Source: an uncultured Gemmatimonadales bacterium
GTDB taxonomy: Bacteria > Gemmatimonadota > Gemmatimonadetes > Longimicrobiales > RSA9
Assembly (NCBI GenBank): GCA_963798085.1
Contig: CAWCRS010000003.1
Span: forward strand, 713,573 to 777,572
Reading direction: 5' to 3'
Length of the DNA: 64,000 bases
Within the stretch, counting starts at the first letter, position 1, and each line of letters starts with the position of its first letter. Below, in pieces: positions 28,418-61,098 of this stretch. The notes beneath the pieces are model-generated. The model made no database searches, was not told the DNA's origin, and worked only from the letters and a program-made list of their open reading frames with translations. Position numbers and translations under genes: made by a program.

Positions 28418-28915
28418 TCAGACCTGCCGATCCAGGAGCGCGCCGTGATCAGCGCCTCCCAGCCCTCCACCCGAAGTCACTGCGCCGCTCAGGACCTGGA
28501 TCAGTCGATTGCCCTGCTCCAGCGCGCCCTCGAGCACGCGGCGGTTGATGCGGATCTCACGGGCCAGAATGCGGGCTTCGTGACTCACCCGATCCCTCGT
28601 TTCCGCGAGTTCCAGCGTCATCTCATCTCCCAGTATCGTCTCCAACTGGTGCAAAGGCGTAGTTTCCGAGCCGGTCAGGATCGCCATCAGGGTGCGGCGG
28701 CGGATCTGCGCCTCGCGCAGCGTGCCCAGCACGCGGTGCGCGGCGAAGACGCTGCCATCCACCACTTCGAGGTCATCCGCGGCAATGCCTTCCCGCTGGC
28801 GGCGCAGAATCCCGTGCAGCTCGCTCAGCAGCCGCTCTTCCGCGGCCAGCGCCTCGGTGAGCAGCGCGCTGTCAGGCGGCGCCAGCTCCAGCACGGTGTT
28901 GTCCGCGCGCATCAT
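28418..28915 (-). CDS. FlgN-like export chaperone (hypothetical)
   Basis: 165-aa helical protein between flgI/J and flgK. The call rests on synteny and composition only. Confidence 0.4.
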   Translation of the reverse strand: MMRADNTVLELAPPDSALLTEALAAEERLLSELHGILRRQREGIAADDLEVVDGSVFAAHRVLGTLREAQIRRRTLMAILTGSETTPLHQLETILGDEMTLELAETRDRVSHEARILAREIRINRRVLEGALEQGNRLIQVLSGAVTSGGGLGGADHGALLDRQV

Positions 28916-30261: not shown

Positions 30262-30902
30262 GGCCAGAGCATTCCCAGGATGCGGGCGAAGATTCCCTGC
30301 TTCGGCTTGCCCAGATCGCCCTTGGATTCGTACGCCAACTCGGCGTTAGCCAGACGCCACGACTCGACAATGTTGCGGGCCGAAATGTCCTGCGCGCGTA
30401 CCCAGCCCGTGATGGTGACCTTCTGCACCGCCTTGTCCAGCTTCAGCGTGCGCGTGCCTTCGATCTTCAGCAGACCGCCCGGCTCGACCGAGACCACGCG
30501 CGCCGAAAGCTCGGTGGTCAGGCCGTCGCGCCGGTCCGCCTGCCCCTTCACATTGGACGAATTGTCCAGCGATGTGCGGAAATCGACGTTCTTCTGCGTG
30601 CCGCTGGGCAGATTCGCGCCCAGGCTGCCTGTCGTGGAGCGGCCCGCCTGATCGACGTTGGACTTCTGTGCCAATGCGATCGTCTGCGCATCCACGAGCA
30701 GCGTCACCACATCGCCCACGCGGAAATCGCGGCGGTCCGTGGTCCAGTTGCCCAGGCCCGGCCGCAGCGCGGGCTTCGTGCTGTCCGCCTGCTGCGTGGC
30801 CGCCTGTCCGCCCGTCTGTCCCGCGGCCTGCGCCCTTGCGGGCGAGGCGCTTGCGGACAGTGCTGTCAGCAGCAGCAGCCAGCGTCCTGCGTGCCTGCTC
30901 AT
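30258..30902 (-). CDS. flgH: L-ring protein FlgH (no Cys, so not lipidated)
   Basis: 214 aa with a signal peptide and FlgH family core (RDFRVGDVVTLLV ... LKIEGTRTLKLDKAVQKVTITGWVRAQDI). Confidence 0.85.
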   Translation of the reverse strand: MSRHAGRWLLLLTALSASASPARAQAAGQTGGQAATQQADSTKPALRPGLGNWTTDRRDFRVGDVVTLLVDAQTIALAQKSNVDQAGRSTTGSLGANLPSGTQKNVDFRTSLDNSSNVKGQADRRDGLTTELSARVVSVEPGGLLKIEGTRTLKLDKAVQKVTITGWVRAQDISARNIVESWRLANAELAYESKGDLGKPKQGIFARILGMLWP

Positions 30903-44828: not shown

Positions 44829-46086
44829 CTACCGCTTGAGGTTGACCAGCTCCTGGAGCATCTCGTCGCTGGTGGTGATCACGCGCGCGTTGGACTGGAA
44901 GCCGCGCTGCGCGGTGATCAGGTTCGTGAATTCCTGCGCCAGGTCGACGTTGGACATTTCGAGCGCGCCGGACGTGACGACGGACTGGCTGCCTTCGCCG
45001 GCGAAGCCCAGCACGGCGGCGCCGGAGTTGGGCGATACCGTGTACATGTTGTCGCCCACGCGGATCAGGCCCGACGGATTGTTGAAGTCGGCCAGCACCA
45101 GCTGCGCCAGCGTCTGTGTCGTGCCGTTGCTGAATGCGCCCACGATCGTGCCCGTCGGATCAATGCTGATGCGCTCGAGCAGACCCATCGTGTAGCCGTC
45201 CTGCTCTTTCAGCACCGCGGTCGAGGGCCCGGCGAACTCGGAAAGGCCGTTGATCTCGCCTGCCGTGCCGAACGTCAGCGTGACTTTCTGCGAGGCGGCG
45301 AAACCGGCGGGCGTGAACTCGAAGTCCACGGTCTCGGGATCCAGCAGCGAGCCATTCGTGTCGAACGTCACGGTACCGGTGTCGTTCACGTACGTCGAGC
45401 CGGGCTCGTTGTTGGTCGTCGTGATCGCGTAGTCCCACTCGTTGGCGTTGGCGTTCTTGGTGAACTCGATGTTCAGGTCGTGCTTGCCGCCCTGCTCGTC
45501 ATACACGGTGATCGAATGTGTTGCGCGTCAGGCCCTGCGCCGCGCCCGCATCGAGGTTGCCGCCCAGGACCGCGTTCTCGGTGGCGTGGGCCGGCGCCTT
45601 CTGGCCGAAGGGCAGCTTGATGTCGTCGATCGTGTCGGTCAGCACGCCGTTCACAGGCACGCGACCCTGCACGATGAAGCCGTTCGTGGACGCCACCAGC
45701 TTGCCCGACGCGTCCAGCTGGAACGCGCCCGAGCGCGTGTAGAAGCGCTGCGTGCCGTCGGACACGACGAAGAAGGAATCGCCCTGGATGGCCAGGTCGG
45801 TGTCCACGCCGGTCGTCTCGAGGTTGCCCTGCGTGAACATGGCGTCGATGCTGCCGATGTTCATGCCCAGGCCGATCTGGATCGGGTTGCGGCCGCCGGA
45901 CACGTTGGTGGCGCCGCCCGGCGGACGGCTCGCGCCCTGCACGATCTGCGCGAACGCTTCCTCGAATGTCACACGACTCGACTTGAACGCCACCGTGTTC
46001 ACGTTGGCGATGTTGTTGCCGATCACGTCCATTTTGACCTGGTGATTGCGCAGGCCGGACACGCCGGCGAACAGAGAACGCATCAT
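44829..46086 (-). pseudogene. flgE: flagellar hook protein FlgE, one frame disruption
   Basis: The N-fragment is ORF 45499..46086 (MMRSLFAGVSGLRNHQVKMDVIGNNIANVNT...). The C-fragment is ORF 44829..45506 (...ITVYDEQGGKHDL ... NLITAQRGFQSNARVITTSDEMLQELVNLKR). The junction lies at about 45510-45525. Confidence 0.85.
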
Positions 46087-46109
46087 TTCGGATTCTCCTC
46101 GTTGCCTGT

Positions 46110-46787
46110 TTACTGGCTGATTTCGATGACGTTGCCGAGCGGGATCGTGATCGAGCCGCTCGACAGCACCGGCCCGCTGGCGGTGTACCTGACTCCGTCG
46201 ACGCGCAGTCGCGAGTACGTGGTCACGCTGACCGCCGTGCCCGCGCTGTCCTTCACATCGAGGCTGTAGGTGTACTGACCGGCCGGCACGTTGCCGACCA
46301 GCTTGCTCAGGTCGATGTTCTGGTCACCGGCATCCAGCCGGCCCACATCGTAGCGCGCCACTTCCTTGCCCGTGTCGTCCTTGATCACGACCTGACCGAC
46401 GCCACCCTCGCCGCCCACATTCACCTTCACATCGAGCGGGCCGCTGGCCGGCATCTGCAGCGCATCACCCTGAATGAGCACGCTCTTGCCCAGCAGCTGG
46501 GCTGCGGTGCTGGCATTGATGCTCTGGATCAGCGAATCATTGCCTGCGCTCTGCGCCTTCAGCTCGTCGCCGATGTTAATGAGCTGTTCGACCGCCGAGA
46601 ACTGCGCCAGCTGAGCCGCCATTTCCTTGGGATCCGCGGGATTCATGGGGTCCTGGTTGCGCAGCTGGGATACCAGAAGCTGCAGGAAGTCGTCCTTGCC
46701 GAGGACGCTGCCTGCTGTGGCCGCCGCCGCGCTCGACGTCGAGCTGGCTGTCGTGCTGCCGCCGGCACTCGTGATGGGATCGATCAT
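46110..46787 (-). CDS. flgD: hook capping protein FlgD
   Basis: Contains LGKDDFLQLLVSQLRNQDPMNP plus an Ig-like C-domain. The ATG at 46787 overlaps the fliK stop (ATGA). The track ORF extends to 46856. Confidence 0.9.
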   Translation of the reverse strand: MIDPITSAGGSTTASSTSSAAAATAGSVLGKDDFLQLLVSQLRNQDPMNPADPKEMAAQLAQFSAVEQLINIGDELKAQSAGNDSLIQSINASTAAQLLGKSVLIQGDALQMPASGPLDVKVNVGGEGGVGQVVIKDDTGKEVARYDVGRLDAGDQNIDLSKLVGNVPAGQYTYSLDVKDSAGTAVSVTTYSRLRVDGVRYTASGPVLSSGSITIPLGNVIEISQ

Positions 46788-48877
46788 TTGCCATTCTCCT
46801 TGCCATGTCTCCGGGCGTTCCGGTGTTCCTGCTGCGCGCCGCCCTGGCGGGCCCACGCGCTTTCGTTCTGGTTGCTGCCATTGCCTTTGTTGCGCGACGC
46901 GTCCCTGCCCGCCTGCGGCATCACCAGCGGCGAGGCCTCGCCTGCTTCGCGGATCAGTACCGAAGCATCCAGCCCCCGCCGTTCGAGGATCTGACGCAGT
47001 TCGCCGGTGTGCGTGGCCAGCTGCGCCGCGGCCGTCGGATCAGTCACATCAATGGCCGCATTCACGCTGGTGCCGCGCAGGCCCACGCGGATGCGGGCGG
47101 CATCACTGCCATCGGCGCCCGTGATGTGGAGTGTGACGCCGGAGGCAGGCGAGGCTTGCGCCGCATCCTGCAGCGCGAGTACACGCGCCACGCGTGCGCC
47201 AATGTCCACGCCCTGCGCTGCGCCCGCGCCCGCCGCCTGCTGCGGCTGCGATCCGGCCACGGCGCGCCAGAGCGCGCGGGCCGCGTCGTCGCCCTGCAAA
47301 CCTGCGGTCAGCGGATCCGCGCTGCTGCGACCATCACCATCACTGCTCGTGCCCTGCTCGCGCAGAGCGGCCGCCAGCTGGCTGGCCCGTGTGTTGCGCG
47401 CGGTCAGACTGCCCGTGTCCGTGGTCTGCGGCGCACCGGCGGTCGTGTTGACCGTGGCCCCGGATGCGGCCGCGAGTGCGCCTCGCGCCGCCGCAGTGAC
47501 CGCGGCCGGTGCCTCCAGCAGGCTGGCCACGCGCGCCACCTGCGCGGTCGCCGCCACTGTCGCCACCGGCGCGGGCGCCGAAGCGTCTCCGCTCATGACC
47601 GGCGGGGCTGCGGAGCGGCCGCCTTCCAGCGCACCGTCAGGAGCCAGCTGGCGAATGGTCTGCATGTCGCCCGCCGCGCCGCGCAGTTCGATGTGACCGG
47701 GATCGGACGGGCCCAGTGTGCTCAGTCCTTCCTGTGCGCAGAGCTGCGCCAGGCGGGCGTACTGGGCGTCGTCGCCTCCCTCGATGACGACATTGGCCGC
47801 GAGGCCGGCAGTGTGGTTCGAGTGCTTCGTCCACGTCACCGTCTGGCCCGGCTGCGTGCGACCCTGCGCGTACAGCGCATCCTGCCGCGGCTGCGAGCGC
47901 CAGGTCTCGACCACGTGCACATCCTCGCCGAATTCCTGCTTCATGCGCTCGATCACACGCTCCAGCTTCGTGCGGAACTCGGGCGCCAGTGCGTCCAGCG
48001 AACGTTGCACGTGTGTGCTGTCCGTATCCGTCGCCACCGGTTGCGCCAGCGCCGCGGCTGCGGCCTGTGCGGCAGCCGCGCTGTCCGCGGCATTGGAGGC
48101 GACACTGTTCTTCTGTGCGCCGGCGTTGTCAGAGGCGGCCGCACCGCTGCCAGCGGTCGGGGCCGGAGTGCGGTTGTCTGACTGGCTGTTAGGATCGTCC
48201 GTCGCCGTGCCGCCGCTGGCGCGGCCTGCCGCGGAGGCGCTGCGGCGCGACCCCTGGTCCGTGGCTGTGGCATCATCCAGCGCCTGCGCGGTGGCCCGTA
48301 TGGCTGCCCGCCGCGTGCCCGGGTCGCCCGGCTCACTCGCCGTTGCCTCCGGCTGCATCAGGCCGGCCGGCCTTGCCGTGCCGCCATGGCCCGCGTCGCT
48401 GGCCGGGGCCCGTGCGCGGGCCAGCAGCAGTCCGAAGTCCGGACTGCCTGACACGGTATTATCGTTGCCCGGGTACGCCGCCGCCTGGGCGAGGCGTCCG
48501 TTGGCATTGCTGCCGTGGGCGCGCGTCTCGACGGACGCACTCGCGCCCGACAGCAGGCCGGCCACGCCGGCTTTGAGACGTCCCGCGGCTGCACGCGCTT
48601 CACCCGCATCCTGCATTGCGTCACCGCCTGTGTCATTGGTACTGCTGCCTGTTGCTGACGCGGCACCCGTCGCCCCGTCACCCACCACCTCCGCGTCATC
48701 CATGAAGCGGGCGAGAAGACTGCCAAACCCCGGTACCGCCCTGCCCCGTTCAGCGCGCAGGCGGACGTCTGACGACGTCGCCTGCAGACCGGCCAGGGCC
48801 CGCTGCCCCGCGTGCTCACGCAACGGTGCAGAGTTCGGCGATTGCGCGCCGATCGCGGAGCCCGGGATCATCGCCAT
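46784..48877 (-). CDS. fliK: hook-length control protein FliK with an embedded M15/LAS peptidase-like domain
   Basis: 697 aa. The N-terminus is FliK-like (GFGSLLARFMDD) with low-complexity ruler sequence. Residues 293-400 carry the peptidase-like pattern. The C-terminus is a T3S4/Flg_hook-type domain (GVTLHITGADGSDAARIRVGLRGTSVNAAIDVTDPTAAAQL...LRQILERRGL). Confidence 0.8.
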   Translation of the reverse strand: MAMIPGSAIGAQSPNSAPLREHAGQRALAGLQATSSDVRLRAERGRAVPGFGSLLARFMDDAEVVGDGATGAASATGSSTNDTGGDAMQDAGEARAAAGRLKAGVAGLLSGASASVETRAHGSNANGRLAQAAAYPGNDNTVSGSPDFGLLLARARAPASDAGHGGTARPAGLMQPEATASEPGDPGTRRAAIRATAQALDDATATDQGSRRSASAAGRASGGTATDDPNSQSDNRTPAPTAGSGAAASDNAGAQKNSVASNAADSAAAAQAAAAALAQPVATDTDSTHVQRSLDALAPEFRTKLERVIERMKQEFGEDVHVVETWRSQPRQDALYAQGRTQPGQTVTWTKHSNHTAGLAANVVIEGGDDAQYARLAQLCAQEGLSTLGPSDPGHIELRGAAGDMQTIRQLAPDGALEGGRSAAPPVMSGDASAPAPVATVAATAQVARVASLLEAPAAVTAAARGALAAASGATVNTTAGAPQTTDTGSLTARNTRASQLAAALREQGTSSDGDGRSSADPLTAGLQGDDAARALWRAVAGSQPQQAAGAGAAQGVDIGARVARVLALQDAAQASPASGVTLHITGADGSDAARIRVGLRGTSVNAAIDVTDPTAAAQLATHTGELRQILERRGLDASVLIREAGEASPLVMPQAGRDASRNKGNGSNQNESAWARQGGAQQEHRNARRHGKENGK

Positions 48878-48888
48878 GCCGGAACCGA

Positions 48889-49446
48889 CTACCGCCCGGC
48901 CAGCAAAGCCTTCGCGATGGCCGTGCCCCGTTCACCCTTGAACTTGGCCAGGATCGCTGCGGCCTTGCGTTCCGAGAGAGTCAACAGCACTGCCTTCACC
49001 GGAGCATCCTCCAGCGGTTCCAGGATGCGTGCCGCTTCTTCCGGCCGCATCGCTGCGAGAATGCGCGCCAGCCGCGCGGGAGGCGCATTGTGCGCGCTGA
49101 GTGAATCGAGGCGCATGCTGTCCGCGGGCGAGGTCTCCGGTGGCTTCGCGCCCGCGCTGGCCGCTGCGTGCTGCGCCTCGCCGGCTGCGGCTTCGTGCGC
49201 CTGCGCGCTGTCGCCCGTCATGGCGCTGGCCGCCGCCGAGTCAGGCTGCGCGTCTTCTGCCTGCCCCGTCGCGTTCGCCGCGGAATCCGCGGCCAGCGAG
49301 TCGGCGCGCAGAGAATCGGCCTTGAGCGAGCCGGCCGCCATTTCGGCGGCGTACCGGGTCGCGGCCTTGCGCATGGAAACGGTGGTGCCGCCGCCCGCGC
49401 CCAGCGCGAAGCACACGGTCGCGGCAATCACGACTTTCATGTTCAT
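48889..49446 (-). CDS. flagellar-locus protein with MgtE-N-like domain (YlxF/FlbB position)
   Basis: 185 aa with an N-terminal TM and the C-terminus [44 protein letters not shown]. It lies between fliJ and fliK, as in the Bacillus fla/che operon. Confidence 0.5.
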
Positions 49447-49904
49447 GAAACGTCATCCTCCTGCTGGCGGCGCGTGAACCGGGCGAGCGCCACAGCATCC
49501 ATCGTCGTGCGGTCCAGCCGCTCCTCGCCTTCCCGCCACAGTGTGAGATAGCGCTCGCGCAGCCGGTCCATGACCTGACGCTGCGTTAGAGCGTGCCGGA
49601 ATTCATTGCGCGCCGTGTCCACGCGCGCGCCGGCTTCTTCCTGCGCCTTTTCCGCAACCGCCAGGTGTTCGTCGAGCTGCGCAATGAACAGCGCCATCTG
49701 CTGCAGCGTCCCTGCCGGCGCGGGTGTGCCGCTGCCACGGCTGGTGCCTTCGACCCCGCGATTGCGCGCGGCTTCGATGGCCAGGCGCTTCTGTTCGGCC
49801 AGTACCGCCTCGTTGTGCGCTTCCGCGAGCCGGGTGGCACTTTCCTTTTCCCGCTGCTCCCGTACTTCGAGCACCTTCTGCAGGCGAAACCGGAATCCAC
49901 TCAC
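49443..49904 (-). CDS. fliJ: flagellar export chaperone/stalk FliJ
   Basis: 154-aa coiled-coil protein ([26 protein letters not shown]...). The GTG at 49904 overlaps the fliI stop (GTGA). In the track it is hidden in the 3' part of ORF 49443..50798. Confidence 0.65.
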
Positions 49905-51238
49905 GATGCACCACCCGCCACGATTTTCGCCGCCAGCTCCAGCACGGCCTTTCTCGTATCGCCGAAACCCGTGCGCTCTGTCGGCGACTGCACCAGGAAC
50001 GATTCCAGCGCGGGCCGCACGCGCAGTGCGGTGTCCAGCAGTGCGTCCGTGCCCGGCTGGTAGGCGCCCACGGCGATCAGGTCTTCCTTTTCGCGGTAGG
50101 CCGCCATGCATGCGCATCACCAGGTCGGCCGCCCGCCGGTGCTCGGCATCGGCCACGTGGTCGCGCACACGGCTGCTGCTCTCCAGCGCATCGATCGCGG
50201 GGAAGTGCGACGCCATGGCCAGCTTGCGCGTCAGCACGATGTGCCCGTCCAGGATCGAGCGCGCGGCGTCGGCCACCGGCTCGTTGAAGTCATCGCCTTC
50301 GACGAGCACCGTGTAGATGCCGCTGATCGCGCCATCGGCCGCGTTGCCGGCGCGCTCCAGCAGCCGGGGCAGTGCCGCGAACACGGAAGGCGGATAACCC
50401 TTCGTCGTGGGCGGCTCGCCTACCGCCAGTCCGATCTCGCGCCAGGCCATCGCCACGCGCGTGATCGAGTCGACCATGAGCAGCACGTGCTTGCCCTGGT
50501 CGCGGTAATACTCGGCGATGGCCGTGGCGAACTGCGCGCCGCGCGCGCGGATCAGTGCGGCCTCGTCGCCCGTCGCCACGATGACCACCGAGCGCGCCAG
50601 GCCTTCCGGGCCCAGCGAGTTCTCGATGAAGTCGCGCACCTCGCGGCCGCGCTCGCCCAGCAGCGCGATCACGTTGACGTCGGCCGACGTGTTGCGCGCG
50701 ATCATGCCGAGCAGCGTGCTCTTGCCGACGCCGCTGCCCGAGAAGATGCCGACGCGCTGGCCCCTGCCGATGGTGAGCAGGCCGTCGATGGCGCGCACAC
50801 CGGTCGTGCAGCGGCTCGCCGATCATGCGGCGCTCGAGCGGGTTCGGCGGGTTGGTCTGCCATGGGCACGCGCGCGGTTGCCGCGCGGACCTGGCCCTTG
50901 CCGTCGATCGGGATGACCGAGGCCGTTGAGCACGCGGCCGAGCAGCGCCGGGCCCGACGTCCGGCGCCCAGGGAGCGGCCCAGCGGCTGCACGCAGGCTG
51001 CCGGGGTGCAGGCCATCCAGCTCGCCCAGCGGCATCAGCAGCACGCCGCGCTCGTGGAAGCCGACGACTTCGGCGAGCACCGTGTGACTCGCCGCGCGTC
51101 GCGCGCACACGGCACAGCTCGCCCAGTGCCACGTCCATGCCCGAGGCCTCGATGACGAGCCCGACCACGCGCGTCGTGCGGCCGAGGCCAATGGAAGCGC
51201 GTCGACGCTCTCCACCTGCGGATCAGTGACTCAACCAT
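49901..51238 (-). pseudogene. fliI: flagellar ATPase FliI, at least 6 frame disruptions
   Basis: Conserved pieces are scattered over all three frames. In order they read MVESLIRR / VESVDALPL / GRTTRVVGLVIEASGMDVALGELCRV / HTVLAEVVGFHERGVLLMPLGELDGL...LLGRVLNGLG / PIDGKGQVRAATARVP / [15 protein letters not shown] / [31 protein letters not shown]...(Walker A, B) / [18 protein letters not shown].... The fragments lie in ORFs 50823..51215, 50290..51168, 50702..51016, 49443..50798 and 49901..50107. Confidence 0.85.
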
Positions 51239-51916
51239 CGACCAGCCGGTGGTAGATGCGTTCCAGCCATGGTCGACGCGGCCGTCGATCACGCGGTGTC
51301 GGCCCTTCGACCATGCAGCCGCCCGGCTGGATGTCGGGGTCGGCGACCCAGCGCGACTTCGCGCCCCGGTGCGATCGAGATGTTGCCGCCATCCGCGGCT
51401 GTGGCGGAGAGTCATGGACAGATCCTGCGGGTGCAGGCGCACGCGCAGCGGCTCGTCCACCGGGAACTGCGCCAGCGCCCGCCGTGTCAGATCGGCGACA
51501 ATGTGCGCGTCACCGGTCAGCTCGCGTCCAACCAGCTGTTTGGCCACGGCCACGGCCAGCGCGCAGATGTTCTCGCGCGCGTTGTCCACCCATGTGCCCT
51601 CGCCGGCGCTCAGCTGTTCCATCACGCTGGCCAGCGCACCGAGCGCCGAGCGCACGCCCGCGGCTTGACGCTGCATGGTCTCGGCGGCGCCTTCGTCGAA
51701 GCCGCGCTGATAGGCTTCTTCCAGCTCGGCCTGGCGCTCGAGGGCCGCGCGCCGGTCGGCTTCGCGCCGCTCGCCCACGCCACGCAGTGCTTCGCCCGGT
51801 GCGGGCGGCATGGGTTGCGCGGCCACCTCGTCGGGCGACCACGTGTCGGGCACCACGCCGACCTTTTCCGGCAGCGGCGCCAGCGATGTCGCGATCCAGT
51901 CAGAGGACCATGTCAT
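51231..51916 (-). pseudogene. fliH: flagellar export regulator FliH, about 4 frame disruptions in the 3' end
   Basis: ORF 51035..51916 reads as FliH up to ...LRVRLHPQDLSM. The rest is recovered only by frame hopping: LSATAADGGNISIAPGREVA / WVADPDIQPGGCMVEGPT / RVIDGRVD / WLERIYHRLVDG*. The predicted stop is at 51231-51233. Confidence 0.75.
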
Positions 51917-52893
51917 CGTCGCTGCCTCCGATCACGATCTCGCCCGCCGCCTCCAGTGCACGCACCATCTTCACGATCGCCGTCTGCGCGCTCTCCACAT
52001 CGCGCAGCCGCACGGGTCCGAGGAAGCCCATTTCCTCACGCAGCGCGTCGGCCGCGCGGCTCGACATGAGCGACAGGATACGCTGTTTGAGCGGATCGCT
52101 CGCCGCCTTGAGCGCGAGCGCCAGTTCTTTCATCTGCACGTCCTTCAGGACGCGCTGCAGCGAGCGATCGTCCAGCCGCACAATGTCCTCGAACACGAAC
52201 ATCAGGTTCTTGATCTGCTCGGACAGTGTCGGATCCCTGGCGGCGATGCTCTCGAGCAGTTCCTTCTCCACCGAGCCGGTCATCCGGTTGAGCACGGTGG
52301 CGACCGCCTGCGGTCCGCCGGCCACGCTCAGGTCCTTCGTGATGGACACGGTCGACTCGCTGCCGTAGCAGCGTTCGAGCACCTGCAGCACTTCCGGCAG
52401 CACCTTGTCCAGGCGAGCCAGGCGCAGCAGGATCTCGCCGCCCAGCTCGGTGGGTAACTGCTTGAGGATCGCGGCCGTCTGGTCCGCCTCGAGGTGCGCC
52501 ATGAGCAGCGCCACTGTCTGTGGATGCTCGGCACGCAGCAGTGCGCTGATCTGTGTGGGATCGGCGTTGCGCAGATTGCGGAAGCCCGCGTTCTCACGCA
52601 GCTGTGCTTCGATCCGCTTCAGGATGCCTGGCTGCTTTCTGTGGCCCGATCGCCTGCTCCAGCACCTGACGCGCGTAGTCGACGCCGCCTTCCGCGATGG
52701 AGTTCGCCGCCGTCTCCATCTGGCCCCACTCACCCAGGACCTCGGTCACGATTTCCGTGGGCACGCGCTCGATGCGCGCGATCTCGAAGGAGATCTCTTC
52801 GATCTCCTGCGGCGTGAAAGTCCTGGTCACTTCGGCCGCCGTCTGCGGCCCCATGGCCATCAGCACGATCGCGGCCTTCTGTTTGCCGGACAT
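51900..52893 (-). pseudogene. fliG: rotor switch protein FliG, one frame disruption
   Basis: The N-fragment is ORF 52594..52893 (MSGKQKAAIVLMAMGPQTAAEV...). The C-fragment is ORF 51900..52733 (...ILKRIEAQL...MFVFEDIVRLDDRSLQRVLKDV...). The junction lies at about 52636-52642. Confidence 0.9.
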
Positions 52894-52937
52894 GTCCTCG
52901 ATCGGCGAGCGCCTGCGCGACGCGGCGGGTTGTCACG

Positions 52938-54405
52938 TCACGACTCCTTCATCCAGGCGCGCAGCATGCGCGCGGCCGTTTCCGGACTGTCCGCCGAGCG
53001 TTGCAGCATGGCCGCGAACGGCGAGGGCGCTATGACCGGCGCTTCCGGAAATTGCAGCGCTTCGGCTCTGCCGCCAGCCGCCGCGGGCAGTGCGCCGCGC
53101 GCCGCCGGAGAGGGCACGGCCGCAGCCGCGCGCAGTGCCTTCATCAGCTGCAGTGCGACCACAAACGCGAGCGCCAGTCCAATGCTCATGAAGATCTCGT
53201 TCCTGTAGCGCGGCACCATCATGAGGACCGATGGCTTGCTGACCGGTTCCTGGGTGGGCACGCTGACCGAGAACGGCGCCGACATGACGGTGATCGCATC
53301 GCCGCGCGTCTTGTCCAGGCCAATGGCGTTGGAGACCAGCTGGTCCACGCGCGACAGCTCATCCGGCGTCCACGGCTGCGGCGTCTTGCCATCGGCCGCC
53401 GTGCGCTCATTCAGCATCACCGCGACCGTCAGCCGGTGCACCGTGCCGGCGGCGCCGGAGAAGGTCTCGATGCTCTTCGTCGTCTCGTAACTCGCCGATG
53501 ATGCCGATGACGCCGCGCCCACCTGGCCTGGACTGGGCATGATATCGGAGCGCTCTTCCTTGGTCGTGACCTGCTCGTCCGGATTCAGCTTCTGCGTCGT
53601 GCGATCGATCTTGTCGAAGTTCAGGTCGGCGGCCACGCGAACACGCGCGTTACCCGTGCCCACGGTCTGCCCGACCAGGTCTTCGGCCTTGTGCTCGAGG
53701 TAGGCTTCCACGTCGCGGCGCATCTGCAGCTGGCGCTTGCTCAGTCCCGCCGCCGAGCCCGGCTCCACCGCGGCCGTCAGCAGGTGACCCGCATCATCCA
53801 GCACCGTCACGCGATCGCTTTCCAGGCCGTCCACGCTGCTCGCGACGAGCGAGGAGATGGCATCCACCAGCTCTTCGCCCGGCCGCGTGCCGCCCCGCGT
53901 AGCGTCAGCACCACCGACGCAGCTTCCGGCTGACTCGTCTTGCGGAACCCCGACGACTCGTTGATCGCAATGTGCACCGCGCAGACTGCACACCGCGCAT
54001 CTCGCCGATCGTGCGCTCCAGCTCGCCTTCCAGCGCCCGCCGGTAGTTGATGCGCTGCGTGAAGTCGGTCATGCCCCAGGCCGGCTTGTCGAACAGCTCG
54101 AAGCCCGGGCGGCCCTTGGCCGGCAGACCATCCCGCGCCAGTGCGACTCTCGCCTTGGCCAGGTCGCTTTCCGCGACCAGGATCCTGCGAGCCGCCATTT
54201 CCAGCTGGTATTTAATGCCCTGTTCGTCCAGCTTGGTCGTGACCTGGCTCACTTCGTCCAGCGAGAGCCCGGGCATGAGCGGCACATAGTCGGGCCGCGC
54301 GGCAATGCGCGCGATCCACAGGATCCCCACAATGGAAGCGGCACCTGCTGCCAGGATGACAAAGGAACGCCCGCGACCGGCGCGCTCCATCCAGTTCCGA
54401 AGCAA
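52938..54405 (-). pseudogene. fliF: MS-ring protein FliF, two frame disruptions
   Basis: The N-fragment is ORF 53905..54405. The segment VHIAINESSGFRKTSQPEAASVVLTLRG is in the third frame. The C-fragment is ORF 52938..53993. The junctions lie at about 53977-53982 and at the C4 run 53893-53896. Confidence 0.9.
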
Positions 54406-54442
54406 TCCGGCATCGTCGCCACGGCTCAGGAATTCTCTCTGA

Positions 54443-54780
54443 TCAGGTCTGCATGTTGATCACCGTGCGGTATGCCTCGGTGATCTTGTTGCGGATCTCG
54501 ATGAGCAACTCGAGGGCGAGGCCGGCTTCTTCACTCGCCGCCATCACATCGTGCAGTTCCACGGGATCGCCACGCACGAACGCGGCAATCGCGTCGCTCG
54601 CCGTGTCCTGCAGCTCACTCACTTCTCCAATCGCCTGCTTGAGCGCGTCGCCGAACGAAGGGCCGGGCGTGAAGCCCAGCTCCAGCTTGCGGAAATCCTG
54701 CGGCCGCGGACCGCCGACGCCCTGCGGACCCTGCAGCGTGCCGCCACTCTGCACCGCGCCCACACCCTGATCGCGCTCAT
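54443..54780 (-). pseudogene. fliE: flagellar rod/MS-ring adaptor FliE, frame disruption at codon 5
   Basis: The ATG at 54780 gives MSAI. The frame is then lost. The next frame gives QGVGAVQSGG...FGDALKQAIGEVSELQDTASDAI...LIEIRNKITEAYRTVINMQT. The span is 338 nt, which is not a multiple of 3. The missing base is at about 54769. Confidence 0.8.
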
Positions 54781-54782
54781 GC

Positions 54783-55115
54783 TCAGACCGTCCGATCAAT
54801 GCGCGCGCCGCGCACCAGGCCCGGCGGAATGTTGGCGCTGCCCGGTCCGTAGGTGAGCGGCCCCGACGACTGCAGCCGCGAGAAGAACTGCCGCTCCTCC
54901 GCCGACAGCACACTCCACAGCTCGGGATCCGTGCCCGGCGGCGCTTCCGCCGGAATCGCGCCATTGTCGGCGACGATGCCCGTCGGTGTCTGCTTCGTTG
55001 CCGGCACATTCGCCGGCAGCCGCTGCAGCCCCGTCGACTCCGGCCTCGCCGGCCGAGGCCCGATGCCGCCCGGCCCGTAGCTGCCAAACCCGCCGTTAAC
55101 CCCCTGAATCGCCAC
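54783..55115 (-). CDS. hypothetical 110-aa protein between flgC and fliE
   Basis: It starts at a GTG preceded by AGGAGC. It is Pro- and Gly-rich and contains PELWSVLSAEERQFFSRL. No family was recognised. Confidence 0.4.
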   Translation of the reverse strand: MAIQGVNGGFGSYGPGGIGPRPARPESTGLQRLPANVPATKQTPTGIVADNGAIPAEAPPGTDPELWSVLSAEERQFFSRLQSSGPLTYGPGSANIPPGLVRGARIDRTV

Positions 55116-55222
55116 TGTTGCTCCTCGTTCCTTCGTCTGCCTTACAGTCTGTTATGGCAATCCCGCGCGCCCGTCTCTCTCGTTTCCTTCTGCCCGACAT
55201 TGCGTTTCTGGTTCAATCTGTT

Positions 55223-55246
55223 CCCCAGCCCCAGCCCGAGCCCCAG
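55223..55246 (-). repeat. inverted copy of the GGGCTCGGGCTGGGG repeat
   Basis: The plus strand reads ccccagccccagcccgagccccag. Confidence 0.55.
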
Positions 55247-55267
55247 AAACGTTTCTGCCGTTTCCGT

Positions 55268-55793
55268 TCAGATCTGCGTCGCCCGCTGCAGCATGTTCTT
55301 GATCGCCTGGAACACCGTCGCGTTCGCTTCGTACATGCGCCTCGACTCCATCAGGCGAACCGTCTCCTGCGTCAGGTCGACATTGGGCATGTGCACGTAG
55401 CCATTGGCGTCGGCGTCCGGGTGGCCCGGGTCATAGACCATGGGTCCGTGCGTCTGGTCCTGCGCAATGCCCGTCACCGCCACACCGCCTTCCTGCTCCA
55501 CCTGCGGCAGCGGCAGTTCGCCTGCCAGCTCGCCCGACGGGTAGAATGCGACCCGCCTCGAGATAGCCCGCCTGCGGCACGTAGACCTGCTCCGCCAGCT
55601 GCGCCTCGCGCCGCTGATACGGTCCGCCCTGCGGCGTGCGCGTGGTCTCGGCGTTGGCAATGTTCGAGACGATCATGTCAATGCGCTGCCGCTGCGCGCT
55701 CAGTCCGCTCGCCGAAATGCTCAGCGAACGGAACATCGGGCGGATCGCGCCCGGCAGCTGCATCAGCGAAGCACCGATACGACGAATGTCCAT
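55268..55793 (-). pseudogene. flgC: proximal rod protein FlgC, one frame disruption
   Basis: The N-fragment is ORF 55431..55793 (...FRSLSISASGLSAQRQRIDMIVSNIANAETTRT...). The C-fragment is ORF 55268..55660 (...GYVHMPNVDLTQETVRLMESRRMYEANATVFQAIKNMLQRATQI). The junction is at the C3 run 55552-55554. Confidence 0.9.
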
Positions 55794-55795
55794 GA

Positions 55796-56116
55796 CTAGC
55801 GCTCCCGTACGCTCGAGCGTACCTGCGTATACGTCTGCTGCAGCAGCCGGGTCAGTGCCTCGTACCGGATCTGCTCATCCGCCAGCGACACCATCTCCTG
55901 CTCCACATCGACGCCTTCTTCCGGCAGTCCCGCATTCGCCGCGTTCGCGGGATTCGCGGGATCCGCCGTCTGCGCCGCGTTCAGCGCGCCCGCGAAGCCC
56001 GGCGTCGAGGCATTCGCCACGCGATGCGCAATGCCACGCGCTCGCGCACTCGAAGCATCGAGGCCGCTCCTGAGCAGCGCAGCTGCGGACTCCGGTCCCA
56101 TCAGCCGTGTGAACAT
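55796..56116 (-). CDS. flgB: proximal rod protein FlgB
   Basis: 106 aa. It contains ARARGIAHRVANASTPGF and the C-terminus VDVEQEMVSLADEQIRYEALTRLL. It is the first gene of the operon. Confidence 0.8.
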   Translation of the reverse strand: MFTRLMGPESAAALLRSGLDASSARARGIAHRVANASTPGFAGALNAAQTADPANPANAANAGLPEEGVDVEQEMVSLADEQIRYEALTRLLQQTYTQVRSSVRER

Positions 56117-56152
56117 CGTCGTTCATCCTCCGAACAGTCGCCATCCCCCGAA

Positions 56153-56168
56153 GGCAAGCGCCATTCCA
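56153..56168 (-). promoter_or_regulatory. sigma-54 promoter of the flgB operon
   Basis: The minus strand reads TGGAAT-ggcgc-TTGCC. It lies about 35 nt upstream of the flgB ATG, and a GGAGGA RBS lies between them. Confidence 0.65.
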
Positions 56169-56428
56169 GTGGGCAGAAACCGCGGCGGCAACTCCTGGCA
56201 TCCGCCGGAAGTCGCCGCATGGCAACACGTTGCGGGTTCAGACATGGCGCCATCACAAGCCCCGCCAAACAGCCGGTTCCCACGAATGGCGGCAAGTTCT
56301 GCCGCCTCCAGACGGGTCGTTCTTGCCGGTTGAGGCAGACGCGAGGCTGCTGCGGCGAGGCAGACTCCGGCCGGTTGTTTGCTTGTCGCTGATCTTCCTG
56401 CCGGTATCGTGGTTCCGCGCGAACGACT

Positions 56429-56773
56429 AACGGAATACTTCATCATCACACGGAGGCATCGGGGGGCGGAGGGGCGCTGCTGTGGCGTGAGGGCTGAACC
56501 GCAGCGGACCGGTTGTGATGGGTTGCCTGCTGGGATTGAAGGCGATTTCGTGCGGTGTTCTGCTGCAGGCGCATCGCTGTGATTTCAAACGATCCGGACT
56601 GTCGCTGAATTCCTCCGATCAACCGCCTCGATCACTCGATCGAGCAGTGCCCGATCCGCGCCTCGTGCGATTTCCTTGTCGTGCGTTCACGCCCCGGGGC
56701 CACGCAGCCGCAATCCGTCCCCCGTGTCCCCCGTCCCTCCGACCACCTCAGTGTGATGATGCAGTTATCCGTT
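56429..56773. repeat. inverted-repeat (MITE-like) noncoding element, copy 2
   Basis: The left arm is 56429-56456 (aacggaatacttcatcatcacacggagg). The reverse complement of the right arm, 56746-56773, is aacggataactgcatcatcacactgagg. It shares catcatcacac and cggaggggcgctg with copy 1 at 26.3 kb. Confidence 0.6.
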
Positions 56774-56862
56774 TCCGCACCAGATCACATCTCGGCAAGA
56801 CGTCGCCGCCATGCCGCTTACACCAGGACTCACTGCATCCTCGAGCCACGCCCCAGACACCT

Positions 56863-58264
56863 TCAAGCCTCCCCCACAACCTCGTCTTCGAGGCCGTCGG
56901 GGCGATTGAGCTTGTTGCGCAGTGTCCGGACGCTGATGCCGAGCAGGGTGGCGGCGCGGGTGCGATTCTGTTTCGCGGTCTCGAGCGCGGTCTCGATGAG
57001 ACGGCGTTCGGCCTCTGCGATATTCAGTGTGGACAGCACCACCGCGTCTTCAATGCCCGTGTGTCTGGTCCGTGCGGGACGCGCCTCGGCCATGACGTGC
57101 GTGGTACCGGGCAGATCGAAGGCGTCGGGCCCGATCACTGTCGTGCGCGTCATGATCACGGCGCGCTCAATGGCGTGCGCCAGCTCGCGGACATTGCCGG
57201 GCCAGGCGTGTGCGCGCAGCCGTTCCATCGCTTCTGCTGACACGCCGGTTATTTCGCGCCCGGATTCCTGGGCGGCGCGGGTCACGAAGTGCTGCACCAG
57301 TGCGGGCAGGTCTTCCAGTCGCTCGCGCAGTGGCGGCACGCGGATCTGCACGACGCCCAGACGATAGTAGAGGTCTTCGCGGAAGCGGCCTTCCTGGATC
57401 TCGCGGCGCAGGTCGCAGTTGGTCGTTGCGATCACGCGCACGTCGACGCGTACGGGCGAGTGCCCGCCCACGCGCTCGAACTCCTGTTCCTGCAGCACGC
57501 GCAGCAGCTTCGGCCTGCAGGTCGAGACGCATCTCGCTCACTTCATCCAGCAGCAGCGTGCCGCGGTGCGCCCGCTCGAACACAGCCTTGGTCTGGCGGA
57601 TCGCGCCTGTGAAGGCGCCGCGCTCGTGGCCGAACAGCGTGCTTTCCACCAGGGCTTCCGGCAGTGCGGCGCAGTTGATCGCGATGAACGGACCATTGCG
57701 CCGGTCGCTCCGTTCGTGAATGCCCCTCGCCAGCAGTTCCTTGCCGGTACCGGATTCGCCGTGCAGGAGCACGGTGGCGCGCGCCGTGGCCACGGTCTCC
57801 ATGGCTTCCACCACCTGCTGCAGCGCTTCGCTCTCGCCCACGATGGTGCGCTCGGCGCGCTCGCTCACGCGTGCGCGGAGGCGCGCGGTCTCTTTCCGCA
57901 GGCGGTTCGATTCAATGGCCTGGTTGACCACGACCAGCAGCTGGTCCGAGCGAATCGGCTTGGACAGATAGTCCACCGCGCCCGCCTTCATGGACAACAC
58001 CGCGTGCTCCACACTCGGCGCGCCGGTCAGCATGATGAGCGGCACCGTGGCGCCGTTCTGGGTCAGGTAATGCAGGAATTCGAGGCCCGAGCTGTCGGGC
58101 AGGCGATAGTCGGATACAATGAGATCCACCGTCTCGGCTTCCAGCACATCGATTGCCGACTCCACATCGGCCGCCGTGAGCGCGCGGTGGCCGGCGCCGG
58201 CCAGCGTCCGCCGCAGAACGGAGAGCACTGCGGGTTCGTCATCGACACAGAGAATCGTCGCCAT
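56863..58264 (-). pseudogene. NtrC-family sigma-54 activator (receiver + AAA+ + HTH; FleR/FlrC/FlbD-like), one frame disruption
   Basis: The N-fragment is ORF 57167..58264. It carries the receiver DLIVSDYRLPD, Walker A GESGTGKE and the GAFTGA loop. The C-fragment is ORF 56863..57498 (LQEQEFERVGG...WPGNVRELAHAIERA...TRAATLLGISVRTLRNKL). The junction lies at about 57509-57514. Confidence 0.85.
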
Positions 58265-58310
58265 TCGCTTCCGTCGGGCTCAGGATCTCGAAGATCCTTT
58301 GCATCCGGTC

Positions 58311-58337
58311 TCAAGTTTCAATCGGCGCCGCCGAGAA
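58311..58337 (+). promoter_or_regulatory. sigma-28-type promoter of flgL-fliW
   Basis: Reads TCAAGTTT-caatcggcgcc-GCCGAGAA with an 11-nt spacer. It lies about 45 nt upstream of the flgL GTG. Confidence 0.7.
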
Positions 58338-58382
58338 TACCGGCCAGATGGACCGGTTCTGTCTCAGGCAACGCGAGGATCC

Positions 58383-59264
58383 GTGAGGATCACAAATCAG
58401 ATCATCGATCGCCGCGCGCTCGAGGCCATTCAGCACAACATGTCTGGTCTCGCGGAGGCGCAGTCACGCGTGTCAACGGGTACGCGTGTGCATACTGCTT
58501 CGGACGACCCTTCGGCTTACGTCGGCATTCAGACCGCCGACCGCCGGCTGGCCGCCCTCGATCAGTATCGACGCAACATCAGTTCGGCAGGAGCCCGCCT
58601 TTCTACCGAAGAAGGCGTACTCGATCAGGTGACGGACCTGCTGACCCGCGCGCGCGAGGTTGCCACATCGCAGGCGGCGTCGAACGGCACAACCTCCACC
58701 CGCCTCGTCGCCAAGTCCGAAGTCGATCAGCTGCTTTCCGAGGTAGTGGCACTCGGCAACACGCGTCAGAGCAACGCCTTCCTCTTCGGTGGGGATTTTG
58801 CCGACAGTGCGCCCTTCACCACGGCAGGCGTGGCCAACCCGAACCGGCCGCCAGCCGGCGGCGGCAGTGTCGAGTACGGCGATGGCCAGACCATGACCGT
58901 GAACCATGACGGTACGCAGGTCTTCCTCGACACCGGCGTCATTGCGTCGCTGCAGCAGCTCTCCACTGCGCTCGGCACGGATGACACCGCCGGCATTGCC
59001 GCCTCGCTGACCAGTCTGTCTGCGAGCTTCGACGGCGTGCAGGGCCTGCTGGGCGAGGTTGGAGCGCGCACGCGGCAGCTGGACACCGCGTCGGCCAACA
59101 TCGATTCCCTCCAGAATACGCTCCAGACCCAGCGGTCCGACCTCAGTGATGCCGATATTGAGAAGGCAGTGTCGGATCTCGCCAGCCGCCAGACCGCCTA
59201 TCAGGCGGCTCTGCTGGCCACGGCGCGCCTGAATTCGCTCTCGCTAACGGACTATTTGCGATGA
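58383..59264 (+). CDS. flgL: hook-associated protein 3 FlgL
   Basis: A GTG start gives (M)RITNQIIDRRALEAIQHNMSGLAEAQSRVSTGTRVHTASDDPSA.... The C-terminus is ...RQTAYQAALLATARLNSLSLTDYLR. The track ORF begins upstream at 58119. Confidence 0.85.
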   Translation: MRITNQIIDRRALEAIQHNMSGLAEAQSRVSTGTRVHTASDDPSAYVGIQTADRRLAALDQYRRNISSAGARLSTEEGVLDQVTDLLTRAREVATSQAASNGTTSTRLVAKSEVDQLLSEVVALGNTRQSNAFLFGGDFADSAPFTTAGVANPNRPPAGGGSVEYGDGQTMTVNHDGTQVFLDTGVIASLQQLSTALGTDDTAGIAASLTSLSASFDGVQGLLGEVGARTRQLDTASANIDSLQNTLQTQRSDLSDADIEKAVSDLASRQTAYQAALLATARLNSLSLTDYLR

Positions 59265-59725
59265 ACGTAAGGAGTGAGGTCGCCGCCGCCGCCACGCTGG
59301 ATGCGCAGCGTGGTGACGCCGGAGCGCCGCTCGCCATGCCCATCGAATTCGATCGTGGCCTTTTCGGTTTTCCCCAGGCTACCTCTTTCCTGCTCGCACC
59401 CACGTCGCGCGAAGGCTTCTACTGGCTGCAGTCGACCGAGCACGACGCGCTCTGCTTCGTGCTGGCCGATCCCTTCGTGTTCTTCCGTGGCTATGTCGTG
59501 GACCTGCCGGACATCGAGGCCGCGTACCTGGGCGCTAAGGTGCCCGGCAATGTGGTGATTCTCGTGACCGTGACGCTGCCTGATGGCAGCGGTCGCGCCG
59601 CATCGGCGAATCTGCAGGGTCCCATCGCCATCAACGTGCGCAACCGCGTCGGCCGCCAGGTGATCCTGAATCAGCCCGGCTTCGGTGTACGCGAGCCGTT
59701 CGACATGACCGTGCGTCAGGGCTGA
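59261..59725 (+). CDS. fliW: flagellar assembly factor FliW (CsrA antagonist)
   Basis: 154 aa. Contains PIEFDRGLFGFPQATSFLL...FYWLQS...FVLADPFVFFRGY...ANLQGPIAINVRNRVGRQVIL. Its start overlaps the flgL stop (ATGA). Confidence 0.85.
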   Translation: MNVRSEVAAAATLDAQRGDAGAPLAMPIEFDRGLFGFPQATSFLLAPTSREGFYWLQSTEHDALCFVLADPFVFFRGYVVDLPDIEAAYLGAKVPGNVVILVTVTLPDGSGRAASANLQGPIAINVRNRVGRQVILNQPGFGVREPFDMTVRQG

Positions 59726-59754
59726 TCGCAGACGCGAGAGGCGAGCGCAGCAGA

Positions 59755-59786
59755 AAGGGGCGGCTGGTTCATTCCGGCCGCCCCTT
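59755..59786 (+). terminator. hairpin after fliW
   Basis: Perfect 10-bp stem aaggggcggc/gccgcccctt with a 12-nt loop. It lies 30 nt after the fliW stop. There is no clear U tract. Confidence 0.45.
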
Positions 59787-59956
59787 CACGCATTCCGGCC
59801 CGGCGTACACCGGCAGTATCGCGGCCGCAGCCGGCTGCGCATCTTCGTCGCGGCCTGCGCTCGGGTCTGAACCTCGAGTTGATCGCGGCAGTGTCTGAGG
59901 CGACTCCCGGCACAACCTGAAGGCAGGTCGCAGAAGACTGTTGTGTCCCTCGATCC

Positions 59957-61098
59957 GTGGAGGCGATGATGCTACTCAACTACCTCGACAGCGCCATCGG
60001 TTTCGCCGTGATCATGCTGCTGCTGAGTCTGCTGATCACTGTGTTCGTGCAGGCGCTCGTCGTCGCGCTCGGGCTGCGCGGCATCGCGCTTCGAAAGGGC
60101 GTCGCACTCCTGCTGGACCAGTTCGCAGACCTCGGCCCCGGCCTGAAGGACCGGGCCGAGGACATTGCCGATGGCGTCCTCAACCACCCCGCCATCCGGC
60201 GGCAGGGTTGGTTTCTCACTTCGCTGTGGCAGCGAGCGAGCGACATCCGCAAGGACGAACTTCTCGCGCTTCTCTCGAATGCCGATGCCATTGCAGACAT
60301 GCCCGGACTCGATAAGGAGAAGGACACCATCGCCGCGGCGGTGAAAGCGAAGCAGGATGCGCTCGAGACGTGGTTCGACCACGTCATGGATCGCACGACC
60401 GAGCGCTTCGTTTCCTGGACCCGTGGCATCTCGCTCGCCGCGGCACTCCTGCTCGCGCTCTTCCTTCAGGTCGATTCCATTGCGCTGATCAAGCGCATCC
60501 AGTCGGACAGCACGCTGCGTGCGAAGCTCGTCGGCCTGGCGCCCACCGTCCTTGCGCTCGCCGACACCGTGGACCAGGGCCGCTATGTCGCCACCGCCGC
60601 GCTCGACAGTCTGCGAAACAGTCGGGACCAGGTCATTCGCACGGCCGTTGCCGCGAAGCACGACTCGCTCGCGACCCGCGATCAGGGCCGAGTCTTCCTC
60701 ATCAACAACGTGAGCGACAGCACAAGGCGAGCGACAGCCCTCAAGACGTACGAGGCGAGGTTCGACTCCATTCCTCGAATCGGCGCCTGGCAAGACTCGA
60801 CTCCACCAGCAAACGCATTCTCACGACACTCGGCGATTCCCTGCCCGGCGTCTTCCACCTGCCGCCCGCGCTGCCCGCATGGCCATGGAACGGGATGCAG
60901 CTTCTGGGCATCCTCCTCAGCGCGGTCCTCATCAGCCTGGGCGCGCCCTTCTGGTACAACCTGCTGCGCCAGGCCACCAACCTCCGCCCCATTGTCGCGG
61001 GCAAGATCGACGAGCAGCAGTCGCAAGAGGCGTCACAGCAGGGCGCAAGCGCCATAGCAGACACAGCCGCGACAGCGGCCGGCAACCCGAACGCCTGA
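59957..61098 (+). pseudogene. hypothetical polytopic membrane protein, one frame disruption
   Basis: ORF 59957.. gives the N-terminal TM (LNYLDSAIGFAVIMLLLSLLITVFVQALVV) and is plausible up to ...FDSIPRIGA. The natural-looking end (LARLDSTSKRILTTLGDSLPGVF...LLGILLSAVLISLGAPFWYNLLRQ...) is in the frame of ORF 60370..61098. The junction lies at about 60786-60790. Confidence 0.6.

Follow-up and report, generated by a model that had tools for sequence, protein, structure and literature searches.

The window, by which we mean the whole 64-kb stretch of DNA analysed, carries a large set of flagellar genes from a Longimicrobiales-like member of the Gemmatimonadota, together with motor and chemotaxis genes and kdpD. 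Flagellar, motor and chemotaxis genes occupy about 27 kb at 17-44 kb, among them flhA, flhB, fliPQR, fliM, flgK, fliD, the flagellin gene and motAB; flhA, flhB, fliPQR and fliM are located at 36.7-43.7 kb. These genes are intact, as is cheA at 61-63 kb. The stretch between them, 44.8-61.1 kb, contains flgE (44829-46086), fliI, fliH, fliG (51900-52893), fliF, fliE (54443-54780), flgC (55268-55793) and the gene of a sigma-54 activator (56863-58264), all on the reverse strand, as well as a forward-strand gene (~59966-61098) encoding a membrane protein with no family assigned. The ORF at 48889-49446, which the preliminary description of this DNA had taken for fliJ, encodes an MgtE_N/FlbB-like protein, and fliJ corresponds to 49446-49910. 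A 750-nt gap at 56.1-56.9 kb was analysed with an Rfam scan and a sigma-54 promoter search, and nothing was found in it.

Junctions between reading frames were called by frameshift-aware protein-to-DNA alignment against two to three independent orthologues from other Gemmatimonadota genomes, combined with an HMM of codon-position composition, which recovered every one-base indel simulated in the clean segments (150 of 150). This identified 21 frame disruptions in the window, 20 of them in nine otherwise conserved genes within the 16 kb of 44.8-61.1 kb and the remaining one in kdpD, at its 3' end. Each of the 21 is exactly 1 nt in size, with approximately 15 insertions against six deletions. 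Intact sequence flanks every junction in both frames, and no in-frame stop was present in the corrected frames at any of the 21 sites. Both methods reproduced every junction listed in the preliminary description, which had reported nine disrupted genes at 44829-61098 with kdpD as the sole case outside, at least six frame changes in fliI and about four in fliH (we found eight and four), no in-frame stops, and clean flagellar genes at 26.7-44.2 kb; the latter show full-length Pfam matches and no disruption. Full-length Pfam matches were likewise obtained for all other genes of the window, the rest of which is clean. After correction, FliI, FliH, FlgE, FliF, FlgC and the sigma-54 activator give end-to-end Pfam matches, whereas the uncorrected ORFs are truncated or chimeric. 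At every junction, the orthologues of L001, L003, L005 and other related loci continue in one frame, and the shifts are therefore not conserved. Several further calls were discarded: an apparent frameshift at ~40.95 kb, flagged by three queries, corresponds to the ordinary fliP/fliQ/fliR gene boundaries; extra calls at 52933, 54404 and 51264 are artefacts of stop-to-stop reference ORFs that extend upstream of the true start codons; and pairs of frameshift calls within the variable FliF region of distant loci are alignment false positives.

Ten of the junctions are isolated. In flgE, a one-base insertion at 45515..45518 (reverse strand, junction 45516) splits the gene into ORFs of 195 and 225 aa, and every FlgE domain is present in the corrected protein. 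One insertion in fliI (50104..50108, reverse strand) lies between the ATPase and C-terminal domains; past it, the old fliI frame continues into fliJ, which gives a chimeric ORF at 49443-50798. The insertion in fliG (52626..52629, reverse strand) leaves a 200-aa fragment, P0071, in the source genome's own gene calls. Two one-base deletions were found in fliF on the reverse strand, at 53898..53905 and 53981..53982 (junction 53982), and another one in codon 5 of fliE (54767..54768, reverse strand), where the restored start MSAI(Q)GVGAVQ agrees with MSSIQGMGALQ in L042; a nearly full-length FliE could still be made from an in-frame GVG start slightly downstream. The event in flgC is a net +1 insertion in a variable linker and can be placed only to the interval 55523..55574 of the reverse strand. 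In the sigma-54 activator, a one-base insertion at 57511..57513 (reverse strand) falls within the AAA+ domain, and the corrected LDLQAKLLRV is identical to the consensus. The membrane protein gene shows a one-base deletion at 60785..60797 (forward strand), best read as TGGGCA to TGGCA, and the source genome's gene call, P0121, ends in an out-of-frame tail. Finally, kdpD has a one-base insertion at 2540..2556 (reverse strand, ~2548), in a G4/C4 run 13 codons ahead of the stop; removal of the inserted base restores the end of the HATPase_c domain, GPGRG(A)TFFSFTLPAR, with the stop at 2512-2514.

The other 11 one-base indels are packed into ~600 nt of the reverse strand (50800..51420) that cover the 3' end of fliH and the 5' end of fliI, a density of ~18 per kb. 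Seven affect the N-terminal part of fliI, which together with junction 50108 make up its total of eight. They are one-base insertions at 50805..50820 (junction 50820), 50856..50860 (a non-run base), 50909..50913 (junction 50912; the corrected NGLGHPIDGK equals the orthologue consensus), 50993..50999 (a non-run base; corrected HPGSLVQPLG against the consensus HPGSFVQPLG), 51084..51099 (junction 51087, a non-run base) and 51186..51194 (junction 51187), the last one near the N-terminus, and a net -1 change at 50946..50962 that represents either one deletion or two insertions. The four junctions of fliH comprise a one-base deletion near the 3' end (51267..51270, junction 51268) and one-base insertions at 51299..51307 (junction 51305), 51351..51356 (junction 51354, a non-run base) and 51411..51413 (junction 51412). 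Correction extends the FliH Pfam match from profile positions 5-85 to 5-123 of 128.

Clustering of the disruptions is highly significant, both for 20 of 21 events falling within 25% of the window (P = 2e-11) and for 11 events falling within 621 nt (P = 2e-17). When the dense patch is left out, nine of the ten remaining events still lie inside the 44.8-61.1 kb span (P = 3e-5), and the rate in this stretch (44829..61098) is ~0.6 per kb compared with 0.02 per kb elsewhere in the window. Bacteria that lost motility recently often carry frameshifted flagellar genes, and most of the affected genes here are flagellar, which would agree with a genuine and very recent inactivation, in which a newly non-motile lineage carries young pseudogenes with real frameshifts. 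The lesions, however, are not spread over the flagellar module: no disruption falls in the ~27 kb at 17-44 kb that encode flagellar, motor and chemotaxis functions (P = 5e-8 at the rate of the span), and two non-flagellar genes, kdpD and the membrane protein gene, are also disrupted. Because 20 of the 21 events fall in one stretch, the other flagellar genes are clean and the same 16 kb include a disrupted non-flagellar gene on the opposite strand, we consider the distribution positional and not functional. The idea that early flagellar genes are the common factor is not sustained either, as flhA, flhB, fliPQR and fliM are intact.

The kind of lesion also argues against recent inactivation. Under neutral decay, substitutions greatly outnumber indels. 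Of the FliI columns with at least 90% conservation in 30 orthologues, 71 of 76 are retained within the dense patch (93%), compared with 187 of 197 (95%) in the clean part of the protein, and the patch part of FliH keeps 20 of 22 conserved columns. Eleven indels have therefore accumulated in 600 nt without a measurable substitution load, a comparison that has power in the dense patch alone and none for the nine isolated events. This retention and the lack of stops are incompatible with neutral decay. In bacterial pseudogenes, furthermore, deletions prevail and indel sizes are mixed, whereas only 1-nt events were found here, insertions predominate, and there is no mixed spectrum of lesions and no excess of stops or substitutions. 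The flagellar pseudogenes of Shigella, Yersinia pestis and Burkholderia mallei resemble the window in that structural and export genes are frameshifted within a recognisable operon; however, they carry few lesions per gene, of mixed types (IS elements, deletions and nonsense mutations) and distributed over the whole regulon, while the window has only +/-1-nt indels, up to eight in one gene, bounded by position and not by function. We thus regard recent inactivation as very unlikely. A localised burst of +/-1-nt chromosomal mutations over ~15 kb, for example by error-prone repair synthesis, that knocked out nine genes in an organism whose loss of motility is just starting, appears similarly improbable. 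If the indels were real, they would capture the loss of flagella at an unusually early stage, with an odd mutation spectrum made up of indels only.

Sequence context of the junctions was analysed for homopolymers, motifs and base composition. The preliminary description had placed several junctions at short G/C runs, which does not exceed the background: a run of at least 3 nt is found within +/-12 nt of 10 of the 21 junctions versus 53% of random positions, and no junction has a run longer than 4 nt nearby. The best placement of the inserted base is a run of length 1 in 10 of 14 insertions, so that they fall mostly on non-run bases, as random read noise would. No 4-mer is enriched at the junctions after multiple-test correction over the 256 4-mers; CATG, considered as a possible motif association such as a methylation site, occurs near five of the 21 junctions, with an uncorrected P = 0.007 that is not significant. 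G+C content was also rejected as a cause: the dense patch reaches 72% (94th percentile), yet the richest stretches, at 41.6-42.2 and 47.0-47.7 kb, have no frame change. These contexts also bear on recoding, that is, on real frameshifts bypassed by programmed ribosomal frameshifting, transcriptional slippage or RNA editing. The frames are intact on either side of every junction, and in the known systems (prfB, dnaX and the poly-A tracts of endosymbionts) two intact frames likewise abut at a defined site; nothing else speaks specifically for recoding. Those systems, however, depend on a slippery motif or a long homopolymer, and they are conserved in relatives, whereas here no homopolymer exceeds 4 nt, the junctions share no motif and contain no slippery heptamer or simple-sequence repeat of the kind seen in phase-variable tracts, and every orthologue examined is in one frame throughout. 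We know of no bacterial precedent for twenty recoding sites, eight of them in one gene, and consider the probability of recoding negligible.

Taken with the size, clustering and positional limits of the indels, residual consensus indel errors, left where a long-read assembly had low depth or was unpolished, are very probably the explanation of the disruptions. This agrees with the consensus-error part of the cause favoured in the preliminary description, local consensus or homopolymer error, on the basis of indel-only, 1-nt events, no excess of substitutions or stops, a positional distribution and a similar case in a related locus (L045, below); the homopolymer part did not hold. From the sequence patterns, we infer that the disruptions would be errors of the deposited consensus and not mutations in the organism, and the sequencing platform and the technical cause are suggested by the same kind of evidence. 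The contig that bears P0071 and P0121 is 1,100,689 bp long, a size typical of long-read assemblies and an indirect hint at single-molecule long reads, from which it was probably built. Effective depth of reads, or polishing, may have been too low over ~15 kb, so that random one-base indels of the raw reads would survive into the consensus at ~0.6 per kb, and at up to ~18 per kb in the 600-nt sub-patch; gene callers would then split or fuse the ORFs. A MAG of uniformly low coverage would not usually have its errors confined so sharply to ~15 kb while the remaining window is clean, which calls for a local cause; a coverage dip, bridging by one or few reads, or local strain heterogeneity are candidates.

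A mixed origin, in which the dense patch is an artefact but at least one isolated frameshift (for instance in kdpD, flgE or the membrane protein gene) is a real mutation or a strain polymorphism, is unlikely. In its favour, the isolated events are beyond the reach of the substitution-load comparison, those of kdpD and the membrane protein gene lie in short G runs, which are also sites of real slippage mutations, and the fliE event keeps a usable in-frame start close downstream. The isolated events nevertheless share the 1-nt size of those in the dense patch, and nine of the ten also share its location in the same 16 kb, for which a single technical cause is simpler.

Residual indels that fragment genes are well documented in low-depth long-read MAGs (PMC9262707; bioRxiv 10.1101/2021.08.23.457338; PMC12007338). 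As in the window, the indel errors described for Nanopore and PacBio data (PMC9262707; proovframe, 10.1101/2021.08.23.457338; Kastor, PMC12007338) are one-base events in conserved genes that split or fuse ORFs, depend on local depth and polishing, and can be mended by deleting or inserting 1-2 bases with proteins as a guide. This literature stresses genome-wide homopolymer errors, whereas the events described here are mostly outside runs and confined to ~15 kb, with one extreme 600-nt sub-patch.

The pattern thus points to a poorly polished patch of assembly rather than to gene decay, and matters for annotation and data quality only. ORF-based annotation of this contig will give fragments, as anticipated in the preliminary description, and chimeras, examples being the 200-aa FliG fragment and the FliI-FliJ fusion ORF. 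The organism may be wrongly scored as lacking FliI, FliH, FliF, FlgE and the flagellar sigma-54 activator, or as bearing flagellar pseudogenes. Before motility, genome decay or the load of pseudogenes is inferred for this lineage of Gemmatimonadota, 44.8-61.1 kb should be corrected or re-polished and the rest of the contig scanned for patches of this kind.

The collections searched contain no conspecific sequence: the closest FliG relative is 79% identical and the best match in the genome collection is 67% identical. The metagenome collection was also scanned twice for exact DNA matches spanning junctions, the suspect base being optional, and gave none. Among 77 related loci, no convincing frameshifts were observed in short-read MAGs. 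L045 (CAWGKG010000004.1), from the Nanopore-sequenced Gemmatimonadales MAG MFD05684.bin.2.267, belongs to the same phylum and has the same flagellar operon as the window. It differs in that other genes are affected and the events nowhere reach the density of 11 in 600 nt; however, its fliG, fliF and sigma-54 activator genes have single-base insertions at conserved positions, and these are patchy too, with fliI and flgE of that locus clean.

A GC3 frame plot was used to locate frame changes, together with a seven-state codon-position HMM. In addition, stop-to-stop ORFs of orthologous loci from other Gemmatimonadota were searched against the window by tblastn, and for each gene two or three independent orthologues were aligned with our own protein-to-DNA dynamic programme, which permits skips of one or two bases. 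The preliminary description, which had read nine genes as full length only if the frame is changed, was accurate in nearly every detail: the plot and the HMM showed abrupt intragenic same-strand frame changes where it had placed them, and the frameshift-aware alignment it had proposed recovered its junctions. The independent orthologues gave concordant junctions in flgE (45516), fliI (50108, 50820, 50860, 50912, 50946-50962, 50993, 51087 and 51187), fliH (51268, 51305, 51354 and 51412), fliG (52626-52629), fliF (53898-53905 and 53982), fliE (54768), flgC (55523-55574) and the sigma-54 activator gene (57511). The corrected N-terminus of FliE, MSAI(Q)GVGAVQ, matches MSSIQGMGALQ of the orthologous locus L042. 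A membrane protein gene on the plus strand has its junction at 60785-60797, which is crossed by homologues of 350-400 residues. In kdpD there is one extra base in a G4/C4 run near 2548, and its removal brings back the canonical HATPase_c end (GxG-TFFSFTLP) and a stop at 2512-2514.

Each of the 21 events changes a single base; about 15 are insertions and 6 are deletions. Once corrected, the translations are free of stop codons and give end-to-end Pfam matches, whereas the raw ORFs are chimeric or truncated. Thus, coverage of the 128-position FliH profile extends from 5-85 in the raw ORF to 5-123 after correction, and the raw ORF 49443-50798 encodes the FliI ATPase domain, an out-of-frame stretch and then FliJ. 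The true FliJ (49446-49910, minus strand; PF02050 full length) is in frame with the out-of-frame fliI tail; the gene previously called fliJ (48889-49446, minus strand) instead encodes an MgtE_N/FliG_M-like (FlbB-type) protein.

The span 44829-61098 holds 20 of the 21 events (P = 2e-11), and 11 lie within 621 nt (P = 2e-17) in a dense patch at 50800-51420, minus strand, covering the 3' end of fliH and the 5' end of fliI. With this patch removed, nine of ten events are still in the span (P = 3e-5). Rates per kb are about 18 in the dense patch, about 0.6 in the rest of the span and 0.02 elsewhere. This contrast is real, since the HMM detected every one of 150 simulated one-base indels, all lying 150 nt or more from the ends of clean coding segments (median placement error 3 nt). 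Between 17 and 44 kb, flagellar, motor and chemotaxis genes make up about 27 kb and show zero events (P = 5e-8 at the span's rate), and a non-flagellar gene on the opposite strand, that of the membrane protein, falls in the span and is disrupted. The events track position rather than gene function. All other genes of the window are in a single frame with full-length Pfam matches: kdpFABC, a two-component pair, cheYZ-like genes, fliS, fliD, flagellin, motAB, csrA, flgK, flgN, flgI, flgH, flgA, flgG, flgF, fliA, flhG, flhF, flhA, flhB, fliR, fliQ, fliOP, fliM, fliL, flgD, fliJ, flgB and cheA.

In neutral decay, substitutions are several-fold commoner than indels, so eleven real indels per 600 nt would bring a substitution load expected to erase much of the conservation and create stop codons; neither was seen in the dense patch. 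At columns at least 90% conserved in a reference set of 30 orthologues, FliI retains 71/76 (93%) in the patch versus 187/197 (95%) in its clean part, and FliH retains 20/22 in its patch. Bacterial pseudogenes carry indels of mixed sizes with a deletion bias; the events here, only ±1 nt and insertion-rich (15:6; two-sided P = 0.08 against 1:1), show the opposite spectrum. Real recent pseudogenisation of these genes is contradicted by the indel spectrum, the lack of accompanying decay and the positional distribution of the events. The spectrum resembles raw single-molecule read noise; for PacBio reads, the proovframe preprint (bioRxiv 10.1101/2021.08.23.457338) gives rates of about 8% for insertions, 3% for deletions and 2% for substitutions.

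Runs of at least three bases are not enriched, lying within 12 nt of 10/21 junctions versus a background of 53%, and no 4-mer was significant at the junctions after multiple-test correction. When each possible one-base removal was scored against the orthologue profile, the best placement fell outside any run for 10 of 14 insertions. The errors thus look like random indel noise rather than homopolymer-length miscalls. The local consensus error favoured in the preliminary description is supported, but not its emphasis on homopolymers. Programmed recoding or phase variation is contradicted, as the junctions have no slippery or repetitive sites and the orthologues read in a single frame.

The cluster of frame breaks is most probably not biological. 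Judging from the sequence, its most likely cause is about 15 kb of consensus built from too few or unpolished long reads, in which one 600-nt segment would be particularly poor; such failure is well described in low-depth long-read assemblies and MAGs (PMC9262707, PMC12007338, bioRxiv 10.1101/2021.08.23.457338). Whereas the indels and their statistics are shown directly, what is said of the technical cause, of the sequencing platform and of why the boundaries are sharp is inferred. For the nine isolated events, where the substitution test is powerless, the same cause is put forward because they are alike in size, type and location; one or two, for example the short G-run events of kdpD and the membrane protein gene, could be real polymorphisms. 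In practice, the region should be frame-corrected before motility or gene decay is inferred, and other patches of the contig possibly need the same.

The window has a G+C content of 68%, and its flagellar proteins have their nearest relatives in Gemmatimonadota, above all Longimicrobiales MAGs. FliG shows 67% identity to the top genome-collection match (L001) and 79% to the top match among 5.8 billion proteins. In the protein collection, only fragmented gene calls stand for the source genome: a 200-residue FliG piece (P0071) and the membrane protein, whose tail is out of frame (P0121), both on a contig of 1,100,689 bp. The metagenome collection was scanned twice with sequences spanning junctions, in which the doubtful base could be present or absent, and gave zero matches. 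As a control, the same aligner was applied to five genes in 77 related loci, and no convincing frameshifts were found in those from short-read MAGs. A locus from the Gemmatimonadales Nanopore MAG MFD05684.bin.2.267 (L045, CAWGKG010000004.1, 5200-10200) shows several single-base insertions at conserved positions; like the window it is patchy, with fliG, fliF and the sigma-54 activator gene broken and fliI and flgE clean. These insertions are an artefact of the same patchy kind.

Other features of the flagellar genes were also recorded. An ORF at 28915-30345 (minus strand) encodes, in one frame, FlgI (P-ring) in full, about 41 residues of linker and a Rod-binding (FlgJ N-terminal) domain with no muramidase domain after it; it is either a natural fusion of FlgI with FlgJ or the result of losing a stop codon. 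The 455-residue ORF at 40960-42324 (minus strand) encodes FliO (residues 31-92) and FliP (260-450), an apparent fusion. In the fliK position, a 697-residue protein (46784-48877, minus strand) has no above-threshold Pfam match; only 47.64-48.02 kb is conserved in relatives (52-58% identity). Sub-threshold matches to VanY/peptidase M15 in this part (E = 0.009) and to Flg_hook at the C-terminus (E = 0.012) suggest that it may be hook-length-control-like with a cell-wall peptidase domain.

Between the sigma-54 activator gene and flgB there is a gap of about 750 nt (56120-56860) with no coding signal, Rfam family or -24/-12 sigma-54 promoter match; its counterpart in the orthologous locus L003 is only about 260 nt. 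Divergent from the activator gene, 58110-59725 (plus strand) carries a short flagellin-family gene (Flagellin_N, Flagellin_C) and fliW, separate from the main flagellin (22.8-24.2 kb) and csrA (26.76-26.99 kb); the parts that make up the FliW-CsrA-flagellin regulatory circuit are present but divided between two sites. Finally, cumulative GC skew peaks at about 26000-28000, the skew being positive from 1 to 28 kb and negative from 28 to 64 kb, with genes on the minus strand throughout 17-58 kb; the peak could mark the terminus or origin of replication, or a point of rearrangement.
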